In this document: positions 1 through 9,313 of the stretch, in pieces | Layout of the letters: every line of letters begins with the position of its first letter | Position numbering within the stretch: the stretch's first letter is position 1 | Translations under genes and position numbers: made by a program | Notes under the pieces: model-generated | Database searches by the model: none | The model's input: the letters and a program-made list of their open reading frames with translations, nothing else | What the model was told of the DNA's origin: nothing | Virus record (IMG/VR): IMGVR_UViG_2526164634_000020 | Span: 1-9,313 of that record | Length of the DNA: 9,313 nt | Source of the DNA: a virus | Lineage: Duplodnaviria; Heunggongvirae; Uroviricota; Caudoviricetes | Reading direction: 5' to 3' (one strand)

Positions 1-1514
1 AACGATATTATTCCGGCCGACCACTGCCTGCATGATGTGCAGGATATGAGTACGCTGAATCATCCGAAGGCAGACCTGAGCAAAGGGCAGTACGGCTGTG
101 TCGGCCAGGGCTTACATATTGCCAAAAAACTGCTCCCGTATATCCCGAATAACGCGGGGATCCTGCTGGTACCATGCTGTCGTGGTGGTTCGGCATTCAC
201 CCAGGGCGCGGAGGGGGACATTCAGTGCGGACACGGGGGCCAGCCAGGATTCGGCACGCTGGGGGGTGGGTAAACCGTTATATCAGGACCTGATTGCGCG
301 CACTAAAGCTGCATTACAGAAGAACCCGAAAAATGTGTTGCTGGCGGTGTGCTGGATGCAGGGAGAGTTTGACATGAGCGCCGCCACCTACGCACAGCAA
401 CCTGCGCTGTTTACAGCCATGCTGAAGCAGTTTCGTGCTGACCTCACTGTGTTTAACGCGCAGTGTCATGGTGGCAGTGCTGTAAATGTGCCGTGGATTT
501 GTGGTGACACGACGTATTACTGGAAAAATACATACGCTACCCAGTACGACACCGTGTACGGCGGGTATAAAAACAGGGAGAGTGAGGGCGTTTATTTTGT
601 GCCCTTCATGACAGACGGTAACGGCGTCAATACCGCCACTAACGCACCGGCAGAAGATCCGGATATTCCGGCATCAGGATATTACGGTGCGGCATCGAGA
701 ACGAATGGAAACCAGGTATCATCAAACCGCCCGACACATTTCAGTTCATGGGCGCGCAGGAGCATTATTCCGGATCGTATGGCAACCGCTATTCTGAACG
801 CAGCCGGGCGCACCTCAGCTTTCATCAGTGGTAAGGCACCGGAAATCAAACCCTCGCCCGGCGTCGACACGCCATCGGGGCCGTCTGAAGATGCATCCGT
901 ACGCACAATCTCCCTGTTGCCGACAGCCGGAGAGGCTGCTGCGCAGGGCTGGACCATTAAGGACGGCGGAATTCAGTTGTCGGGTGGTGTATTTAAGATC
1001 GCCAAGCAGAGCAATAAAACCTGGTCCCTGATGCATCCGGTGGATGACGCAGTCTCCCTGCTGACACGGGGTGGCAGACTGAGCTGTAAGTTTCGACTGT
1101 CAGGCGCACTGACCAACAACCAGTTCGGCCTGGGAATTTATCTGTATACCGATGTAGCGTTACCTGACGTCGTGGCGATGACCGGGACTGGTAACCCGTT
1201 CCTGATGTCGTTCTTCACCCCAGACCACAGACGGCAAACTGAATCTGATGCATCACAAGAAAGCAGGAAACACAAAGTTGGGCGAGTTCGGGAATTACAG
1301 TAATGACTGGCAGACGCTGGAACTGGTGTTCACCGCCGGCAGTGCCACGGTTACTCCGAAACTGAATGGAGTGGCTGGCCCGGCATTCCAGGTCATAAAA
1401 GACAGTCTGACACTGGGGCTGAATGCGCTGACGCTGACGGATATTACCAAAAATGCAGCGTATGGCGTTGAGATAGAAAGTCTGGTGCTGGAGATAAATG
1501 CACCGGCAGCATAA
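1..1514 (+). pseudogene. nanS: Prophage sialate O-acetylesterase, NanS-p-like (SASA/DUF303 family), 5'-partial at window edge, two apparent +1 frameshifts
   Basis: Frame 1 from the window edge reads ...HCLHDVQDM...GQGLHIAKKLLPYIPNNAGILLVPCCRGGSAFTQGAEG; frame 2 continues ...TGASQDSARWGVGKPLYQDLIARTKAALQKNPKNVLLAVCWMQGEFD...PWICGDTTYYWK...TNAPAEDPDIPASGYYG...; I recognise these motifs from E. coli NanS and prophage NanS-p esterases. Frame switches at the G5 run 213-217 and again at the C4 run 1218-1221; the C-terminal part runs in frame 3 to the stop at 1512-1514. ORF-track entries 37..273, 98..1303 and 1248..1514 are pieces of this one gene. Confidence 0.6.
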
Positions 1515-1521
1515 TAAAAAA

Positions 1522-1551
1522 AGCCAGCGCCCACTCTGAAGGACGCTGGCT
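1522..1551 (-). terminator. Hairpin with flanking A/T run, candidate intrinsic terminator (better formed for minus-strand transcription)
   Basis: GCCAGCG (1523-1529) pairs with CGCTGGC (1544-1550), loop about 14 nt; A7 at 1515-1521 becomes a U-run after the stem only on the minus strand; plus-strand side is followed by TAAAAC. Confidence 0.3.
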
Positions 1552-1725
1552 AAAACGGGTAGATGTACTTCACATGATACTTATACTTGGCAGTACATTT
1601 TCTGACAGACAGTGACGGATGATGTCAAGATATTGTGTCATTTATAACCTGAATCAGGGGTGGCCGGAATGTTATCTGGCATTTTTAGCAGAGCCTGAAT
1701 GCCATAATCACGGCTCCCGGCGTTG

Positions 1726-1765
1726 GCCGTCAGTGGGTGACACTGGCGGCTTTTTTGTTTTTCTT
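1726..1765 (+). terminator. Strong rho-independent terminator upstream of the holin gene (tR-prime-like)
   Basis: 10-bp stem GCCGTCAGTG / CACTGGCGGC (one G-U pair), 5-nt loop GGTGA, then TTTTTTGTTTTT; sits 40 bp upstream of S. Confidence 0.55.
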
Positions 1766-1806
1766 TACTTTCATTTTCTGTCGGCGGTGACGGAGACATA
1801 CATCAG

Positions 1807-2013
1807 ATGGAAAAAATCACAACAGGTGTGTCATACACCACGTCAGCGGTGGGGACGGGATACTGGTTACTGCAGCTGCTGGACAAAGTCTCTCCGTCCC
1901 AGTGGGTGGCAATAGGTGTGCTGGGGAGTCTGCTGTTTGGCCTGCTGACGTATCTGACAAACCTTTATTTCAAGATTAAAGAAGATAAGCGTAAGGCTGC
2001 GAGAGGTGAATAA
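1807..2013 (+). CDS. S: Class II holin, phage-21 S-type pinholin (68 aa)
   Basis: [68 protein letters not shown]; two TMDs plus charged C-tail; near-colinear with my recollection of phage 21 S21; stop overlaps the R start (TAATG). Confidence 0.8.
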
Positions 2014-2510
2014 TGTCGCCGTCATTACGCAAGGCTGTTGCTGCTGCTATTGGTGGTGGGGCTGTTGCCATAGCGTCTGTGCTCATCACTGGTCCGAGTG
2101 GTGACGATGGCCTGGAAGGTGTCAGCTACATACCATACGAAGATATCGTTGGCGTATGGACTGTATGTCACGGACACACCGGAAAAGACATCATGCCCGG
2201 TAAAACGTATACCGAAGCAGAATGCAAAGCCCTCCTGAATAAAGACCTTGCCACGGTCGCCAGACAAATAAACCCGTACATCAACGTCGATATACCGGAA
2301 ACAACGCGCGGCGCTCTTTACTCGTTCGTTTACAACGTGGGCGCTGGCAATTTCAGAACATCGACGCTTCTTCGCAAAATAAACCAGGGCGATATCAAAG
2401 GCGCATGTGATCAGCTACGGCGCTGGACATACGCTGGCGGTAAGCAATGGAAAGGGCTGATGACTCGCCGTGAGATTGAGCGTGAAGTCTGTTTGTGGGG
2501 GCAACAATGA
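2013..2510 (+). CDS. R: SAR endolysin, phage-21 R-type lysozyme (165 aa)
   Basis: N-terminal Gly/Ala-rich signal-anchor-release segment [30 protein letters not shown] followed by lysozyme core [21 protein letters not shown]...; immediately follows the pinholin, typical pinholin/SAR-endolysin pairing. Confidence 0.9.
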
Positions 2511-2944
2511 GCAGAGTAACCGCGATTATCTACGTTCTGGTCATCTGCCTCATCGTCTGCCTTTCATGGGCTGTTAATCATTACCGTGATAACGCCATCG
2601 CCTACAAAGAGCAGCGCGATAAAGCCACATCCATCATCGCTGATATGCAGAAGCGGCAACGTGATGTAGCAGAACTTGACGCCAGATACACAAAGGAGCT
2701 TGCTGATGCTAATGCGACTATCGAAAGTCTCCGTGCTGATGTTTCTGCTGGGCGTAAGCGCCTGCAAGTCGCCGCCACCTGTGCAAAGTCAACGACCGGA
2801 GCCAGCGGCATGGGCAATGGAGAAACCCCAGGACTTACAGCAGATGCTGAACTCAATTATTACCGTCTCCGAAGTGGAATCGACAGGATAACCGCGCAGG
2901 TTAACTACTTGCAGGAGTACATTAGGACGCAATGCCTTCGATGA
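2507..2944 (+). CDS. Rz: Rz i-spanin (inner-membrane spanin subunit)
   Basis: ATGA start/stop overlap with R; [34 protein letters not shown]... N-terminal TMD plus coiled-coil periplasmic region, closely lambda-Rz-like. The ORF-track start at 2495 is GTG; ATG 2507 is the more likely start. Confidence 0.85.
2706..2891 (+). CDS. Rz1: Rz1 o-spanin lipoprotein, embedded in the +1 frame of Rz
   Basis: AAGGAG at 2693-2698 about 7 nt before ATG 2706; [20 protein letters not shown] with lipobox VSAC, then proline-rich [13 protein letters not shown] as in lambda Rz1; lies entirely inside Rz. Confidence 0.75.
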
Positions 2945-3016
2945 TAGCGATAATTTTCCCATTATCTTTCATATGCGTGATTTTAGTTAGTTTTAGTCGC
3001 AACACGAATAAAACAG

Positions 3017-3043
3017 AGAACCACCCGCTATACGAGTGGTTCT
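3017..3043. terminator. Bidirectional intrinsic terminator between convergent Rz and the minus-strand small ORF
   Basis: 8-bp stem AGAACCAC / GTGGTTCT with 11-nt loop; T-rich on both sides (plus: GATTTACACTTTTG; minus: CTGTTTTATTCG). Confidence 0.4.
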
Positions 3044-3060
3044 GATTTACACTTTTGAAA

Positions 3061-3291
3061 CTAAAAGCTAAATACTTGAGCAAGAACAGCTAGCGCTGCG
3101 CAAAAAGCAGCCCGTTTATTCCATTTACTTTGTATTTCAATGGCTTTAAAACAACCCAGTGATGAGAAACTGCCTTGTTCCGTTTTTGGTGGGTGTTCTT
3201 TGGAAGATGCAAAACATGAAATAATCCAAAAAATGGCGGAAAAAATTCCAAAAATTATTGAAGGCAAATGATGCTCTTTCAAAAACTCCAT
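3061..3291 (-). CDS. Hypothetical small membrane or lipoprotein-like protein (76 aa), AT-rich accessory gene
   Basis: MEFLKEHHLPSIIFGIFSAIFWIISCFASS...; hydrophobic N-terminal segment ending in a lipobox-like IISC; convergent with Rz and followed on its own strand by the 3017-3043 terminator. No family recognised. Several T homopolymers make the frame fragile. Confidence 0.35.
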   Translation of the reverse strand: MEFLKEHHLPSIIFGIFSAIFWIISCFASSKEHPPKTEQGSFSSLGCFKAIEIQSKWNKRAAFCAALAVLAQVFSF

Positions 3292-3903
3292 GACTTAACT
3301 CTCTTAAAAGTTGCTAAACATCGCTCGCAAACAAGAAAGAAAAGTTCTGTTGCGGGCACTCCACAATTTAAACGCCACACAAGCAGCTATTAGGTGGACG
3401 GTTCCAAGATTGCTATCAACTGCCACCCGAATACCGTCAAAACTTGACGTCCAACCAAGAATTATTGAGTTGTAAACTCAACGCAATGATCTGGTTGGTA
3501 TAAATGTGACATATGTCATGAATCGACTAGTTGAGATAGTCAAGATGGGCTTGCTTGACATCATCACCACAACCGGAGCCAACAATGGCAGATTGCGTTA
3601 CCCAGATTTGATAAAGGCATTTTAGCCTGACATAACTATGCACTGTATCGTCGCCGTATTCCCGCATCAACAGAGACCACAGCCCGAGAGGGAGACTCCT
3701 CTGCGCGAGTGTGCGGGGATAATCAAAAACGATACACACCGGGGTTTACCGTGTTAACGGAGCGCGGCGTTGTCCCCTCATGGTCGCTGGTCCGGTGCGA
3801 TGGTGGAAGAAACCGGACGATGTGTTACCTCGCAAGCTCTGTTATGTCATGTGTCTGATTTGTGATTTAAGTCGGATAATTGTCATTGCCATTAAGCAGA
3901 GGA

Positions 3904-3934
3904 TTGATGACCGACAGGGCTGCATTGTTAGAAT
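3904..3934 (+). promoter_or_regulatory. Candidate sigma70 promoter for the TonB_C lipoprotein gene
   Basis: TTGATG (3904-3909), about 19-bp spacer, TAGAAT (3929-3934), roughly 30 nt upstream of ATG 3967; pattern match only. Confidence 0.2.
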
Positions 3935-3966
3935 AAGACTTATTCTTATCTATGCCGGGAATAAAA

Positions 3967-4293
3967 ATGAAAAGAAATCTTCCGTTAATTATTTTGTTGT
4001 CTTCTTTGGTTATGGGCTGTACGCAACATAAAACAGATATGCCTCGACAGTTGGTTAAGGCATTACCACAATATCCGGCCTATGCCGCGGCAAATTATAT
4101 AAAGGGACGGGTTGATGTGAAGTTTGATATTGGTGCTGATGGTACTGTCACCCGAATTGAGTTTATCCGTTCAGAGCCGCACCATCTGTTTGATGAGCAG
4201 GTTGTAAAGGCGATGGCAAAATGGCGATTTGAGAAGGACAAGCCGCGTAAAGGCGTGAAGAAAACATTTATCTTTAGTCCTTCAGCACCCTGA
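3967..4293 (+). CDS. Outer-membrane lipoprotein carrying a stand-alone TonB C-terminal domain (about 108 aa)
   Basis: Signal peptide MKRNLPLIILLSSLVMGC with lipobox and +2 Thr; mature part LPQYPAYAAANYIKGRVDVKFDIGADGTVTRIEFIRSEPHHLFDEQVVKAMAKWRFEKDKP aligns motif for motif with the E. coli TonB C-terminal domain (QYPA..A....G.V.VKFD...DG.V......S.P...F...V..AM..WR.E..KP). The ORF-track start 3952 lacks an RBS; 3967 is preferred. Confidence 0.7.
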   Translation: MKRNLPLIILLSSLVMGCTQHKTDMPRQLVKALPQYPAYAAANYIKGRVDVKFDIGADGTVTRIEFIRSEPHHLFDEQVVKAMAKWRFEKDKPRKGVKKTFIFSPSAP

Positions 4294-4484
4294 TTATTTT
4301 ATCAGAAGTTAATTATCACTCTGTTGCTATTCAGTACATCCCTGCAGGGTAAAGTCTTGTTTCGCCGGATATGAAGATGAAATATTGTTAGAAGACAGTA
4401 GCTACCGGTTCCTGTAACCGAACGTTCATTTCTCGTTATTTTTCATGCTGGCCGGGCGCAGGTGCTTTGCACTGAGAGATCCCC

Positions 4485-5693
4485 TCATAATTTCCCCAAA
4501 GCGTAACCATGTGTGAATAAATTTTGAGCTAGTAGGGTTGCAGCCACGAGTAAGTCTTCCCTTGTTATTGTGTAGCCAGAATGCCGCAAAACTTCCATGC
4601 CTAAGCGAACTGTTGAGAGTACGTTTCGATTTCTGACTGTGTTAGCCTGGAAGTGCTTGTCCCAACCTTGTTTCTGAGCATGAACGCCCGCAAGCCAACA
4701 TGTTAGTTGAAGCATCAGGGCGATTAGCAGCATGATATCAAAACGCTCTGAGCTGCTCGTTCGGCTATGGCGTAGGCCTAGTCCGTAGGCAGGACTTTTC
4801 AAGTCTCGGAAGGTTTCTTCAATCTGCATTCGCTTCGAATAGATATTAACAAGTTGTTTGGGTGTTCGAATTTCAACAGGTAAGTTAGTTGCTAGAACCC
4901 ATGGCTCCTTTGCCGACGCTGAGTAGATTTTAGGTGACGGGTGGTGACAATGAGTCCGTGTCGAGCGCTGATTTTTTCGGCCTTTAGAGCGAGATTTATA
5001 CAATAGAATTTGGCATGAGATTGGATTGCTTTTAGTCAGCCTCTTATAGCCTAAAGTCTTTGAGTGACTAGATGACATATCATGTAAGTTGCTGATAGGT
5101 TTCCAGTTTTCCGCTCCTAGGTCTGCATATTGTACTTTTCCTCTTACTCGACTTAACCAGTACCAACCCAGCTTCTCAACGGATTTATACCATGGCACTT
5201 TAAAGCCAGCATCACTGACAATGAGCGGTGTGGTGTTACTCGGTAGAATGCTCGCAAGGTCGGCTAGAAATTGGTCATGAGCTTTCTTTGAACATTGCTC
5301 TGAAAGCGGGAACGCTTTCTCATAAAGAGTAACAGAACGACCGTGTAGTGCGACTGAAGCTCGCAATACCATAAGTCGTTTTTGCTCACGAATATCAGAC
5401 CAGTCAACAAGTACAATGGGCATCGTATTGCCCGAACAGATAAAGCTAGCATGCCAACGGTATACAGCGAGTCGCTCTTTGTGGAGGTGACGATTACCTA
5501 ACAATCGGTCGATTCGTTTGATGTTATGTTTTGTTCTCGCTTTGGTTGGCAGGTTACGGCCAAGTTCGGTAAGAGTGAGAGTTTTACAGTCAAGTAATGC
5601 GTGGCAAGCCAACGTTAAGCTGTTGAGTCGTTTTAAGTGTAATTCGGGGCAGAATTGGTAAAGAGAGTCGTGTAAAATATCGAGTTCGCACAT
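4485..5693 (-). CDS. tnp: IS10 transposase (402 aa), apparently intact
   Basis: MCELDILHDSLYQFCPELHLKRLNSLTLACHALLDCKTLTLTELGRNLPTKARTKHNIKRIDRLLGNRHL... matches the Tn10/IS10 transposase over its full length. Confidence 0.95.
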   Translation of the reverse strand: MCELDILHDSLYQFCPELHLKRLNSLTLACHALLDCKTLTLTELGRNLPTKARTKHNIKRIDRLLGNRHLHKERLAVYRWHASFICSGNTMPIVLVDWSDIREQKRLMVLRASVALHGRSVTLYEKAFPLSEQCSKKAHDQFLADLASILPSNTTPLIVSDAGFKVPWYKSVEKLGWYWLSRVRGKVQYADLGAENWKPISNLHDMSSSHSKTLGYKRLTKSNPISCQILLYKSRSKGRKNQRSTRTHCHHPSPKIYSASAKEPWVLATNLPVEIRTPKQLVNIYSKRMQIEETFRDLKSPAYGLGLRHSRTSSSERFDIMLLIALMLQLTCWLAGVHAQKQGWDKHFQANTVRNRNVLSTVRLGMEVLRHSGYTITREDLLVAATLLAQNLFTHGYALGKL

Positions 5694-5754
5694 CTTGTTG
5701 TCTGATTATTGATTTTTCGCGAAACCATTTGATCATATGACAAGATGTGTATCC
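5686..5754 (+). ncRNA. IS10 RNA-OUT antisense RNA (region retained in the truncated IS10)
   Basis: Position inferred from remembered IS10 coordinates (pOUT near nt 115 directed toward the outside end); the region contains the long imperfect inverted repeat ACATCTTGTTGTC...GACAAGATGT that forms the RNA-OUT stem. Boundaries approximate. Confidence 0.35.
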
Positions 5755-5844
5755 ACCTTAACGTAAGCGTACAGCCTGAACCGTCTGGTCAGAATCTGAC
5801 GAATTAGACAAAGTGGTGTCCACCAAATAAGTAGTGGGAACCAA

Positions 5845-5873
5845 TGAGGTAGCCTGAGTTTAACGGACACTCC
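5845..5873 (+). repeat. Left terminal inverted repeat of the IS3-family element
   Basis: See element entry; hand alignment, imperfect. Confidence 0.4.
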
Positions 5874-5908
5874 TTCCTGAAATAGAATGGCATCAGAAGG
5901 AGCTAATA

Positions 5909-7048
5909 ATGAGCAGAAAAACCCAACGTTACTCTAAAGAGTTCAAAGCCGAAGCTGTCAGAACGGTTCTTGAAAATCAACTTTCGATCAGTGAAGGTGC
6001 TTCCCGATTATCTCTTCCTGAAGGCACTTTAGGACAATGGGTTACCGCCGCCAGAAAAGGGCTCGGTACTCCTGGTTCCCGCACGGTGGCTGAACTGGAA
6101 TCTGAAATTCTGCAACTGCGTAAGGCGTTAAATGAAGCTCGCCTTGAGCGAGATATATTAAATTGCACAGGAGTCGCTGAAAAATACGCGTTAATCGAAC
6201 AATGGCGACAACAATTTCCCATTGAAGCGATGTGTCAGGTATTTGGTGTATCCAGGAGCGGTTATTACAACTGGGTACAGCATGAACCCTCAGACAGAAA
6301 ACAAAGTGATGAGCGGCTAAAACTGGAGATTAAGGTGGCGCATATCCGCACTCGCGAAACATATGGAACCCGGCAGCTCCAGACGGAGCTGGCAGAGAAT
6401 GGCATCATCGTTGGTCGTGACCGACTGGCACGTCTTCGTAAGGAGCTAAGGCTACGCTGTAAGCAGAAACGCAAGTTCAGAGCGACTACGAACTCGAACC
6501 ACAATCTGCCAGTTGCGCCAAATCTGCTGAACCAGACGTTCGCTCCTACAGCACCAAATCAGGTCTGGGTGGCGGACCTGACGTATGTTGCCACACAGGA
6601 GGGATGGTTGTACCTCGCTGGCATCAAAGATGTTTATACGTGCGAAATTGTCGGCTACGCCATGGGAGAGCGCATGACAAAAGAGCTGACAGGTAAAGCC
6701 CTGTTTATGGCGCTCAGGAGCCAGCGCCCACCTGCCGGGCTAATCCACCACTCTGATCGAGGTTCACAGTACTGCGCATACGATTACCGTGTCATACAGG
6801 AGCAGTTTGGTCTGAAAACATCAATGTCGCGTAAAGGTAACTGTTACGACAACGCTCCGATGGAAAGCTTCTGGGGAACGCTGAAAAATGAGAGCCTGAG
6901 CCACTATCGTTTTAATAACCGGGATGAAGCCATCTCAGTAATACGGGAATACATTGAGATTTTCTACAATCGTCAGCGTCGTCACTCTCGTCTGGGGAAT
7001 ATCTCCCCGGCAGCCTTCAGGGAAAAATACCATCAGATGGCTGCTTAA
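5909..7048 (+). CDS. IS3-family transposase, single fused OrfAB-type ORF (379 aa)
   Basis: AAGGAG RBS 7 nt before the ATG; N-terminal HTH (MSRKTQRYSKEFKAEAVRTV...) and leucine zipper (ELESEILQLRKALNEARLERDIL) typical of IS3 OrfA, joined in frame to an rve/DDE core (VWVADLTYV, HHSDRGSQYCA, NAPMESFWGTLKNE, NRQRRHSRLGNISP). Confidence 0.9.
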   Translation: MSRKTQRYSKEFKAEAVRTVLENQLSISEGASRLSLPEGTLGQWVTAARKGLGTPGSRTVAELESEILQLRKALNEARLERDILNCTGVAEKYALIEQWRQQFPIEAMCQVFGVSRSGYYNWVQHEPSDRKQSDERLKLEIKVAHIRTRETYGTRQLQTELAENGIIVGRDRLARLRKELRLRCKQKRKFRATTNSNHNLPVAPNLLNQTFAPTAPNQVWVADLTYVATQEGWLYLAGIKDVYTCEIVGYAMGERMTKELTGKALFMALRSQRPPAGLIHHSDRGSQYCAYDYRVIQEQFGLKTSMSRKGNCYDNAPMESFWGTLKNESLSHYRFNNRDEAISVIREYIEIFYNRQRRHSRLGNISPAAFREKYHQMAA

Positions 7049-7061
7049 AAAAAGAACAAAT

Positions 7062-7091
7062 GGTAGTGTCCGCTATTGCCAGTACACCTCA
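7062..7091 (+). repeat. Right terminal inverted repeat of the IS3-family element
   Basis: See element entry; hand alignment, imperfect. Confidence 0.4.
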
Positions 7092-7202
7092 ACATTCCAC
7101 CATGCATTCCGATTAACGCCGCATAGCCAGTTGGACTTTGCTACTTTGTGAGAGGTAGTACCTTCTATCCAGTGCGAATCTAATTAATGGAATAAATGAT
7201 TT

Positions 7203-9199
7203 ATGAGTGAAAATGATACAATCCCAAAGAAGTCTACAAGTCAGATTAACAAAGCGGTATTCTTTACATCTGCTTTGCTAATTTTCCTTCTTGTCGCCTT
7301 TGCCGCCGTATTCCCGGATGTCGCCGACAAAATTTTAAACTACTTCAGCAACAAATCTTCACGAATGCCAGCTGGTTCTACATCCTTGCTGTGGCCCTGA
7401 TTTTACTGAGTGTCACGTTCCTTGGACTCTCACGCTACGGTGATATCAAGCTGGGCCCGGACCATGCGCAGCCTGATTTCGGCCACCACTCCTGGTTTGC
7501 GATGCTTTTTTCGGCAGGGATGGGGATCGGCCTGATGTTCTTTGGCGTTGCCGAACCTGTAATGCATTATCTTTCGCCACCCGTTGGCACTCCAGAAACC
7601 GTTGCGGCAGCTAAGGAAGCAATGCGTCTGACCTTTTTCCACTGGGGACTGCACGCATGGGCAATTTATGCCATTGTGGCGCTGATTCTGGCGTTCTTCA
7701 GTTACCGTCACGGTCTGCCTTTAACTCTGCGCTCCGCACTCTATCCCATTATTGGCGATCGCATATACGGACCTGTAGGACATGCGGTTGATATTTTCGC
7801 TGTTATAGGCACGGTCTTTGGCGTTGCGACATCACTGGGTTACGGTGTTTTGCAGGTGAATGCCGGTTTGAACCATCTTTTCGGGGTGCCCATCAATGAA
7901 ACGGTGCAGGTAATTCTGATCGTGGTCATCACGGGGTTAGCGACGATTTCAGTGGTGTCCGGTCTGGATAAGGGAATACGTATCCTGTCTGAACTCAATC
8001 TGGGTCTGGCTTTGTTGCTCCTGGCGCTGGTCCTGTGTCTGGGACCAACCGTGCTTCTGCTGAAGTCATTTGTGGAAAATACGGGCGGTTATCTTTCGGA
8101 ACTGGTGAGTAAAACGTTCAACCTTTACGCGTATGAGCCCAAGTCGAGCAACTGGCTGGGGGGCTGGACATTACTGTACTGGGGATGGTGGCTTTCATGG
8201 TCGCCGTTTGTGGGGATGTTCATCGCACGGGTCTCCCGCGGGCGAACCATTCGCGAGTTTGTCACCGGCGTGCTGTTTGTTCCCGCGGGTTTTACGCTAA
8301 TGTGGATGACGGTGTTTGGTAACAGCGCGATCTATCTCATTATGAACCAGGGGGCCACAGACCTCGCCAATACTGTTCAGCAGGATGTGGCGCTGGCCCT
8401 GTTTAATTTCCTGGAGCATTTCCCGTTCTCTTCTGTGCTGTCATTCATTGCAATGGCGATGGTCATCGTCTTCTTTGTAACGTCTGCTGATTCGGGGGCA
8501 ATGGTTGTGGATACTCTGGCATCAGGTGGAGTGGCAAACACACCCGTCTGGCAGCGAATATTCTGGGCCTCGCTCATGGGCATTGTTGCAATTGCGCTTC
8601 TCCTTGCCGGAGGGCTAAGTGCGCTGCAAACGGTGACAATAGCGAGTGCATTGCCCTTCTCAGTGATCTTACTAATATCTATATACGGACTTTTAAAAGC
8701 TTTGCGCCGGGATTTGACCAAGCGTGAAAGCCTGAGCATGGCGACAATTGCTCCTACGGCTGCACGTAACCCAATTCCTTGGCAGAGAAGGTTACGCAAT
8801 ATCGCGTATCTGCCGAAGCGATCTCTTGTGAAACGTTTTATGGACGACGTTATCCAGCCCGCCATGACGCTGGTTCAGGAGGAACTGAACAAGCAGGGGA
8901 CGATAAGCCACATTAGTGATGCAGTCGACGATCGTATTCGTCTTGAAGTCGATTTGGGCAACGAGCTGAATTTTATATATGAAGTGAGGCTTCGCGGGTA
9001 TATCTCACCGACCTTCGCGCTCGCCGCAATGGATAATGATGAGCAGCAGACTGAACAACATCGATATTATCGCGCTGAGGTTTATCTCAAAGAAGGCGGT
9101 CAAAATTATGATGTGATGGGCTGGAACCAGGAACAGCTGATTAATGACATACTGGACCAGTACGAAAAACACCTGCACTTCCTGCACCTGGTTCGTTAA
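7203..9199 (+). CDS. BCCT-family transporter, BetT-like choline/betaine transporter, with apparent -1 frameshift near the 5' end (possible pseudogene)
   Basis: BCCT signature WTLLYWGWWLSWSPFVGMFIARVSRGRTIREF; C-terminal cytoplasmic tail resembles BetT. The N-terminus (7203-7355, frame 3: MSENDTIPKK...ADKILNYFSNK) continues as IFTNASWFYILAVALILL... in frame 2; the shift lies at the A3 run 7353-7355. ORF-track entries 7203..7400 and 7391..9199 are one gene. Confidence 0.8.
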
Positions 9200-9261
9200 T
9201 AGCAACATGCCGTCCTGGGGGCGGCAATTATTATCCCGGCCGCAATATGGGGGAATGCAGA

Positions 9262-9313
9262 ATGATTTCACGCTGGAAATGGATGCTGAAGCAGACAATT
9301 AAAAAACTATGGT
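9262..9313 (+). CDS. Possible 5' end of a downstream gene (partial, unknown product)
   Basis: ATG 9262 with G-rich SD-like GGGGGAA about 7 nt upstream; frame open to the window end (MISRWKWMLKQTIKKLW...). Too short to classify. Confidence 0.2.
   Translation, partial: MISRWKWMLKQTIKKLW

Follow-up and report, generated by a model that had tools for sequence, protein, structure and literature searches.

The locus described here is a nested pile-up of three known insertion sequences and their remnants in an Escherichia coli draft contig. A copy of IS10 that has kept only its inside end adjoins the first 82 bp of ISEc8, which in turn adjoins a derivative of IS600 (Table 1). There is about an even chance, in our estimation, that the pile-up marks a rearrangement joint between a lambdoid prophage and an unrelated chromosomal island. 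The window, by which we mean the whole stretch of DNA that was analysed, is the entire 9313-bp contig AIHD01000030.1 of draft assembly GCA_000250275.2, and every close match to it is from E. coli. The main value of the work lies in annotation: the locus holds three nested IS remnants, not two, and the 82 bp in their midst are to be read as a solo ISEc8 end. Nested insertions and IS-mediated inversions and deletions are already known as routine in E. coli, and no new mechanism or type of element is implied.

Table 1. Features of the 9313-bp window, in order along the contig.
Feature	Position	Strand	Basis
Lambdoid prophage late region	1-4471	+	99.6% identity to the prophages of FDAARGOS_1059 and O111:H2 12A
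IS10 9-bp target site TGCTTTGCA, single copy	4463-4471	.	Direct sequence reading
IS10 (NCBI name ISVsa5), element nt 1329 down to 39	4472-5762	-	Gap-free alignment
ISEc8 (IS66 family) nt 1-82: left terminal inverted repeat and leader upstream of tnpA	5763-5844	+	100% identity
IS600 derivative (IS3 family), 1247 bp	5845-7091	+	Alignment to 1264-bp IS600
Native right flank of the relic: BCCT upstream region, split BCCT gene and start of DUF2254 gene	7092-9313	+	

The IS10 copy was aligned with a complete 1329-bp IS10 that lies at 15560-16888 of a locus of strain 23CRST032 (L004) and bears the 9-bp duplication TGCTTTGTC. The alignment covers 1291 nt of the minus strand without a gap and with a single mismatch, at 5718; it begins at the inside end, CTGAGAGATCCCC, at position 4472 and stops 38 nt before the outside end. 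A sequence-only reading of this DNA had proposed just this truncation, and the alignment fixes the truncation point at nt 39; the full 1329 bp with both terminal repeats are not present. The absent 38 nt are TTAATGATTTTTACCAAAATCATTAGGGGATTCATCAG, the outside-end repeat being CTGATGAATCCCC, and this outer 38-mer was found nowhere in the 9313-bp window with up to three mismatches allowed. We rejected the GTAA that follows 5762 as IS10 sequence: BLAST extends the match by these four bases through a chance mismatch, and the G at 5763 is specific to ISEc8. The boundary at nt 39 presumably takes away the terminal transposase-binding site and most of the IHF site. IS10 transposition needs a two-ended complex, and a copy with an inside end only offers no two-ended substrate; this copy is, to judge from its ends, a one-ended remnant that cannot transpose, as had also been claimed.

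The same reading held that the transposase ORF and the RNA-IN/RNA-OUT region were retained, and this is borne out by the alignment. The 402-aa ORF (4485-5693, minus strand) is intact, and its DNA is identical to that of the L004 copy over the whole ORF. The product is a transposase of the DDE_Tnp_1/IS4 type that scores 404 bits against the IS4-family model NF033591, for which the cutoff is 152. Its ATG falls at element nt 108 (position 5693), in agreement with the canonical numbering, while nt 81 and nt 115, which we take from the Tn10 literature to be the starts of RNA-IN and RNA-OUT in that numbering, map to 5720 and 5686; the region of overlap between the two RNAs is therefore kept. A further suggestion, that the copy still supplies transposase in trans, is doubtful, since IS10 transposase acts preferentially in cis, and no second IS10 copy is visible within the 9313-bp window.

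At its inside end the IS10 copy abuts TGCTTTGCA, which agrees at five of the six specified positions with the IS10 target consensus, NGCTNAGCN. No second copy of TGCTTTGCA was found beyond IS10 anywhere in the 9313-bp window, and a 9-bp target-site duplication is thus absent. On the other side of this target lie the genes for a SASA-family esterase (frameshifted), a class II holin, lysozyme RrrD, an Rz-type lysis protein and a small protein with a TonB C-terminal domain, in DNA that is 99.6% identical to that of two intact E. coli prophages (Table 1). Homology to these prophages stops at 4471. Past the equivalent of this position, the prophages of FDAARGOS_1059 and 12A carry DUF3950, terminase Nu1/A, W, portal, protease and capsid genes. 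An identical 108-aa TonB-domain protein occurs in 894 blocks of the assembly collection, and the DUF3950/terminase order recurs in 10 further relatives, these being the 10 contexts of the protein listed out of the 894 blocks. IS10 at the prophage site was sought in relatives by way of the same protein and was absent, all 10 listed contexts running directly into the terminase genes. The un-inserted site, as seen in a relative (L003), reads ...GGTGCTTTGCA followed directly by TTTGTTGCC, and the prophage sequence expected beyond a second target copy, toward the packaging genes, is TTTGTTGCCAGCC.

The junction with the prophage had been put forward as the most likely breakpoint for the loss of its packaging and morphogenesis genes. 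Prophage homology does stop here; loss of the genes, in contrast, does not follow, as the window is one whole contig and an inversion would merely displace them. As a separate observation, the TonB C-terminal-domain protein (108-113 aa, encoded at 3952-4293) lies between the Rz lysis gene and the prophage packaging region, a position more suggestive of accessory cargo than of a core phage gene. The window also differs from its relatives by indels at 213, 1218, 1660 and 7200, all in short homopolymer runs, and two homopolymer indels fragment the SASA esterase gene; the resulting 345-aa esterase fragment was found in this contig and in no other assembly of the collection. The indels at these four positions may be sequencing errors rather than pseudogenisation.

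Beyond IS10 the sequence switches at 5763. The 82 bp that follow had been measured correctly but called unassigned; they are identical at 82 of 82 positions to ISEc8 nt 1-82, beginning at the GTAAGCG of its terminal inverted repeat (E = 2e-34), and all of the element matches reported here are far beyond chance. In O157:H7 strain PV15-279 the 82-bp match (3001-3082 of L001) lies directly upstream of tnpA, tnpB and an ISEc8-family transposase gene, and it runs from the first base of a complete ISEc8 of 2442 bp that has an 8-bp duplication, CTTTTCTC, on either side. In this complete reference element the first 13 nt, GTAAGCGTACAGC, are common to both terminal repeats, left and right, and the right end is GTACGCTTAC; the sequence from nt 83 onward, AGTATCAGATATG, is absent from our contig. 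Also missing are tnpA, tnpB, tnpC and the right repeat, for IS600 starts at nt 83, and no IS66-type ORF was found in the 9313-bp window. Judged by this alignment, 5763-5844 is a solo ISEc8 left end that has kept 82 of 2442 bp and was cut by IS600. A longer IS600-type element that would take in the 82 bp was considered and rejected, as a normal IS600 with its own duplication begins at TGAGGT. The homology to IS10 ends exactly at ISEc8 nt 1 (5762/5763). A breakpoint that falls on the outermost base of an IS indicates either transposition chemistry or recombination within that IS, and not a random deletion; we conclude that IS10 was cut by an ISEc8 end.

The IS600 copy has both of its terminal repeats intact (TGAGGT...ACCTCA, with the TG...CA ends of such elements), and its transposase matches the IS3-family model NF033516 at 399 bits. 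It is flanked by CAA on one side and ACA on the other and so has no 3-bp duplication, in agreement with the earlier statement that this IS3-family element lacks a matching flanking repeat; a normal copy (L026) has ATC on both sides. Compared with the 1264-bp IS600 of L026, 17 bp are deleted and identity over the remainder is about 99.4%. The deletion (at about 6160-6163) takes away the A7 run that serves as frameshift site, and orfA and orfB are thereby fused to a single 379-aa ORF (5909-7048). The usual IS600 arrangement, in which a slippery A-run links orfA (frame 0) to orfB (frame -1), is lost. The identical 379-aa product occurs in 3383 blocks of the assembly collection. In each of the 10 places listed from these blocks it lies directly upstream of the BCCT locus; the same BCCT gene call is seen in nine of the 10, and DUF2254, TetR and DeoR genes are present in most. 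Strain 23CRST032 has the same IS600 without the deletion, but with an IS30 inside exactly those 17 bp (GCAAC, then IS30, then ACAGCG), and the 17-bp deletion may be the scar of an IS30 loss.

The arrangement of ISEc8 nt 1-82 and IS600 minus 17 bp, with lpxM on the left, was found in 486 of 5426 complete E. coli genomes. From 5763 to its end at 9313 the window is 99.7-99.8% identical to such relic loci in many E. coli, and its last part, 7092-9313, is 99.7% identical to 1932 E. coli genomes. In most of the places listed, IS600 has the 82-bp ISEc8 end before it, and the left flank of the relic is an lpxM paralogue that runs up to GTAAGCG as ...CACTAGTTGTTT (also read as ...TAGTTGTTT). Because the arrangement is present in 486 genomes, hundreds of which have no prophage or IS10 at the site, the relic predates the IS10 event and is unrelated to the prophage. 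On this distribution, three features were inherited with a widespread relic: the junction of ISEc8 with IS600, the lack of ISEc8 nt 83-2442 and the absence of an IS600 duplication. A missing target duplication can be inherited by hundreds of genomes in this way, without signifying a local event.

Comparison with related genomes, which the sequence-only reading had recommended, thus bears on both sides of the locus: intact prophages continue past 4471 without IS10, and the BCCT relic has lpxM as its left flank. Target-site duplications flanking IS10 and IS600 were found for neither element, and the view that the locus is not the product of two simple insertions stands. What does not stand is the attribution of the absent IS600 duplication to the same event. 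That attribution belonged to an account in which a single IS-mediated deletion or illegitimate recombination removed the outside end of IS10 together with the packaging genes and left IS600 without its duplication. Such an event would account for a truncated IS10, for the bare IS600 flanks and for the end of prophage homology at this point. However, given that the 82 bp are an ISEc8 terminus and not anonymous DNA, that hundreds of genomes without prophage or IS10 at the site have these same IS600 flanks, and that a random endpoint falling exactly on the tip of an IS is very unlikely, we regard this explanation as highly improbable.

To the right of the relic, the transporter encoded in 7092-9313 matches BetT/BCCT models at 709 bits. 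Its BetT-like gene is split by the loss of 1 nt in an A-run at 7328, giving ORFs at 7203-7400 and 7391-9199. The 65-aa N-terminal fragment occurs in 19 other contigs as well, including L015 and L018, and relatives with the normal lpxM flank are among them. As the 7328 frameshift is common to L015 and L018, it is a real polymorphism in several lineages, in which the transporter gene has probably become a pseudogene. What lies to the left of IS600-BCCT in the relic differs between strains; the site is a recurrent hot spot of IS rearrangement, and the island is of a type known for this. In L004 (about 5800-6000) and L020 (about 1990-2190) a fragment of an IS3-family transposase gene abuts IS600 nt 1 and there is no ISEc8 stub, and in L008 (9267-9980) IS1 truncates IS600. 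In L015, an NCTC-type assembly, the lpxM paralogue is frameshifted and closes a cluster of four genes (polysaccharide deacetylase, glycosyltransferase, DUF535 and lipid A acyltransferase) at 4652-8527, adjoining fecCDE; we take this cluster to resemble the plasmid-borne shf-capU-virK-msbB2 locus. The contig analysed here ends, at 9313, 5 nt before the position at which IS911 lies in the DUF2254 gene of L015 (12112), which suggests that the source strain also has a repeat at the contig end.

The sole junction peculiar to our contig is that between IS10 and ISEc8, at 5762/5763. It was found in none of 5426 complete E. coli genomes, 72,556 plasmids, the GTDB representative genomes and the JGI metagenomes, and its absence from all collections searched points to a recent, strain-specific event. 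A 45-aa ORF that runs across both junctions has no record in the collections. The 602-aa BCCT fragment was found in this contig only and, taken with the 345-aa esterase fragment, indicates that the collections hold no second assembly of the lineage.

The linkage of IS10, the 82 bp of ISEc8 and IS600 rests on one draft contig, and this raises the question of whether the linkage was made by the assembler. An IS10 interrupted by ISEc8 at nt 38/39 could lie in the prophage and a normal relic elsewhere in the same genome, the assembler having crossed from one to the other through the 82-bp repeat; the IS10/ISEc8 junction would then still be real and the linkage of prophage and BCCT would not. In favour of such a chimera, the window makes up one entire contig of a draft assembly and traverses three repeated elements, and the join is in no independent assembly of the collections searched. 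The 82 bp themselves occur, in most cases at 100% identity, at 9766 places in 3422 of the 5426 complete E. coli genomes, with a median of two and a maximum of 22 places per genome, and the several homopolymer indels relative to relatives suggest a modest sequence quality. However, assemblers normally break at unresolved repeats and do not join across them. At other repeats our contig behaves normally: it starts within a multi-copy prophage gene and stops just short of the L015 IS911 point, and repeats thus lie near both of its ends. Moreover, a mis-join needs read or pair support that the genome so proposed would not give, and errors of the homopolymer type hint at long pyrosequencing reads, which would be able to span 82 bp. 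We consider a chimeric assembly a minor possibility.

Based on these observations, we propose that IS10 first received a full ISEc8 at nt 38/39 and that this ISEc8 then recombined with the 82-bp relic; we hold this to be the most likely route and place moderate confidence in it. First, given that the inside-end junction is genuine, that the target is consensus-like and that the site is uninterrupted in relatives, IS10 inserted into the lambdoid prophage at TGCTTTGCA, in the interval that separates the TonB-like gene from DUF3950 and terminase. Once there, its outside end would have received an ISEc8 between nt 38 and nt 39, an event of which the junction is seen in the contig and the whole element is supposed. 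This insertion would have separated the transposase-binding terminus from the rest of IS10, with ACCTTAAC (5755-5762) as the predicted 8-bp duplication. Independently, and at an earlier time, the fixed relic (lpxM, ISEc8 nt 1-82, IS600 minus 17 bp, BCCT) arose by an ancient insertion of IS600 into an ISEc8 and subsequent loss of the remainder of that ISEc8. Finally, the new ISEc8 copy would have undergone homologous recombination, through its first 82 bp, with the 82-bp relic, so that the DNA to the left of the new copy (IS10 nt 39 and the prophage) became joined to the DNA to the right of the relic (IS600 and BCCT). If the two copies were inverted relative to one another, the outcome would be a chromosomal inversion, with the packaging genes now elsewhere, beside lpxM, a full ISEc8, ACCTTAAC and a 38-nt IS10 stub; if they were direct, the outcome would be a deletion and the packaging genes would be lost. 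Either outcome, provided that the contig is right, is specific to this strain and leaves a lambdoid prophage with its lysis module cut off from the packaging genes.

Besides the dependence on one draft contig, two points count against this route. Recombination over only 82 bp is infrequent, and the full ISEc8, the 38-nt IS10 stub and the reciprocal junction, if they exist, all lie outside the window. The predicted reciprocal junction consists of the ISEc8 right end GTACGCTTAC, then ACCTTAAC, then the IS10 stub TTAATGATTTTTACC..., and no such succession of ISEc8 right end, 8 nt and IS10 stub was found in the GTDB representative genomes. A documented case is a deletion in Agrobacterium pAt15955, in which IS66 copies recombined and the 8-mers on the two sides no longer match (PMC6778807).

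The window by itself does not tell such recombination apart from an event mediated by transposase. ISEc8 transposase acting in trans could have paired the left repeat of the relic with the right end, or a surrogate end, of another ISEc8 copy downstream of BCCT, and the segment between them could have moved into IS10 nt 38/39 as a composite transposon or by intramolecular strand transfer. The breakpoint lies exactly at ISEc8 nt 1, as cleavage by transposase would give. Furthermore, ISEc8 or IS66-type copies lie a few kilobases downstream of BCCT in two relatives (L011 and L013), making partner ends plausible, and no separate insertion of ISEc8 into IS10 would be needed. However, neither a right end nor an 8-bp duplication is in view in the window, which ends 110 bp past BCCT, and more assumptions have to be made than for insertion followed by recombination. 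To our knowledge, there is no documented precedent for solo-end or composite use in the IS66 family. Transposase-mediated joining seems to us a minor possibility. Its strongest form, in which ISEc8 transposase recognised in trans a long-orphaned 82-bp solo left end, matched it with a right end that was distant or a surrogate, and so carried the IS600-BCCT segment into the prophage IS10, we consider decidedly improbable; if true, it would mean that an IS66-family element had mobilised chromosomal genes from one end or as a composite.

The preferred route, insertion of ISEc8 followed by recombination, has its closest known parallel in the IS66-flanked deletion of Agrobacterium pAt15955 (PMC6778807), where non-matching target duplications are likewise the signature left after recombination. 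In our case, in contrast, the homology offered by one partner amounts to no more than an 82-bp relic, and a search of the GTDB representatives did not find the reciprocal product. As to the elements themselves, the IS10 copy resembles IS10/IS10R of Tn10 (IS4 family) in 1291 of 1329 nt with one mismatch, in its inside end, its 402-aa transposase, its RNA-IN/RNA-OUT region and its consensus-like 9-bp target, and differs from it in the lack of the outer 38 nt and in having a single copy of the target site. The IS600 derivative shares both terminal repeats with IS600 and about 99.4% identity over the rest; unlike IS600, it has a 17-bp deletion, a fused 379-aa ORF and no 3-bp duplication, and among the places listed it occupies a single locus, upstream of BCCT. 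Similarly, the 82 bp are identical to nt 1-82 of the ISEc8 of E. coli O157:H7 and many other E. coli, including the GTAAGCG left inverted repeat. In contrast to that element, with its 2442 bp, tnpA, tnpB, tnpC and right repeat, what is present here is an 82-bp solo end, one that has become fixed in many E. coli.
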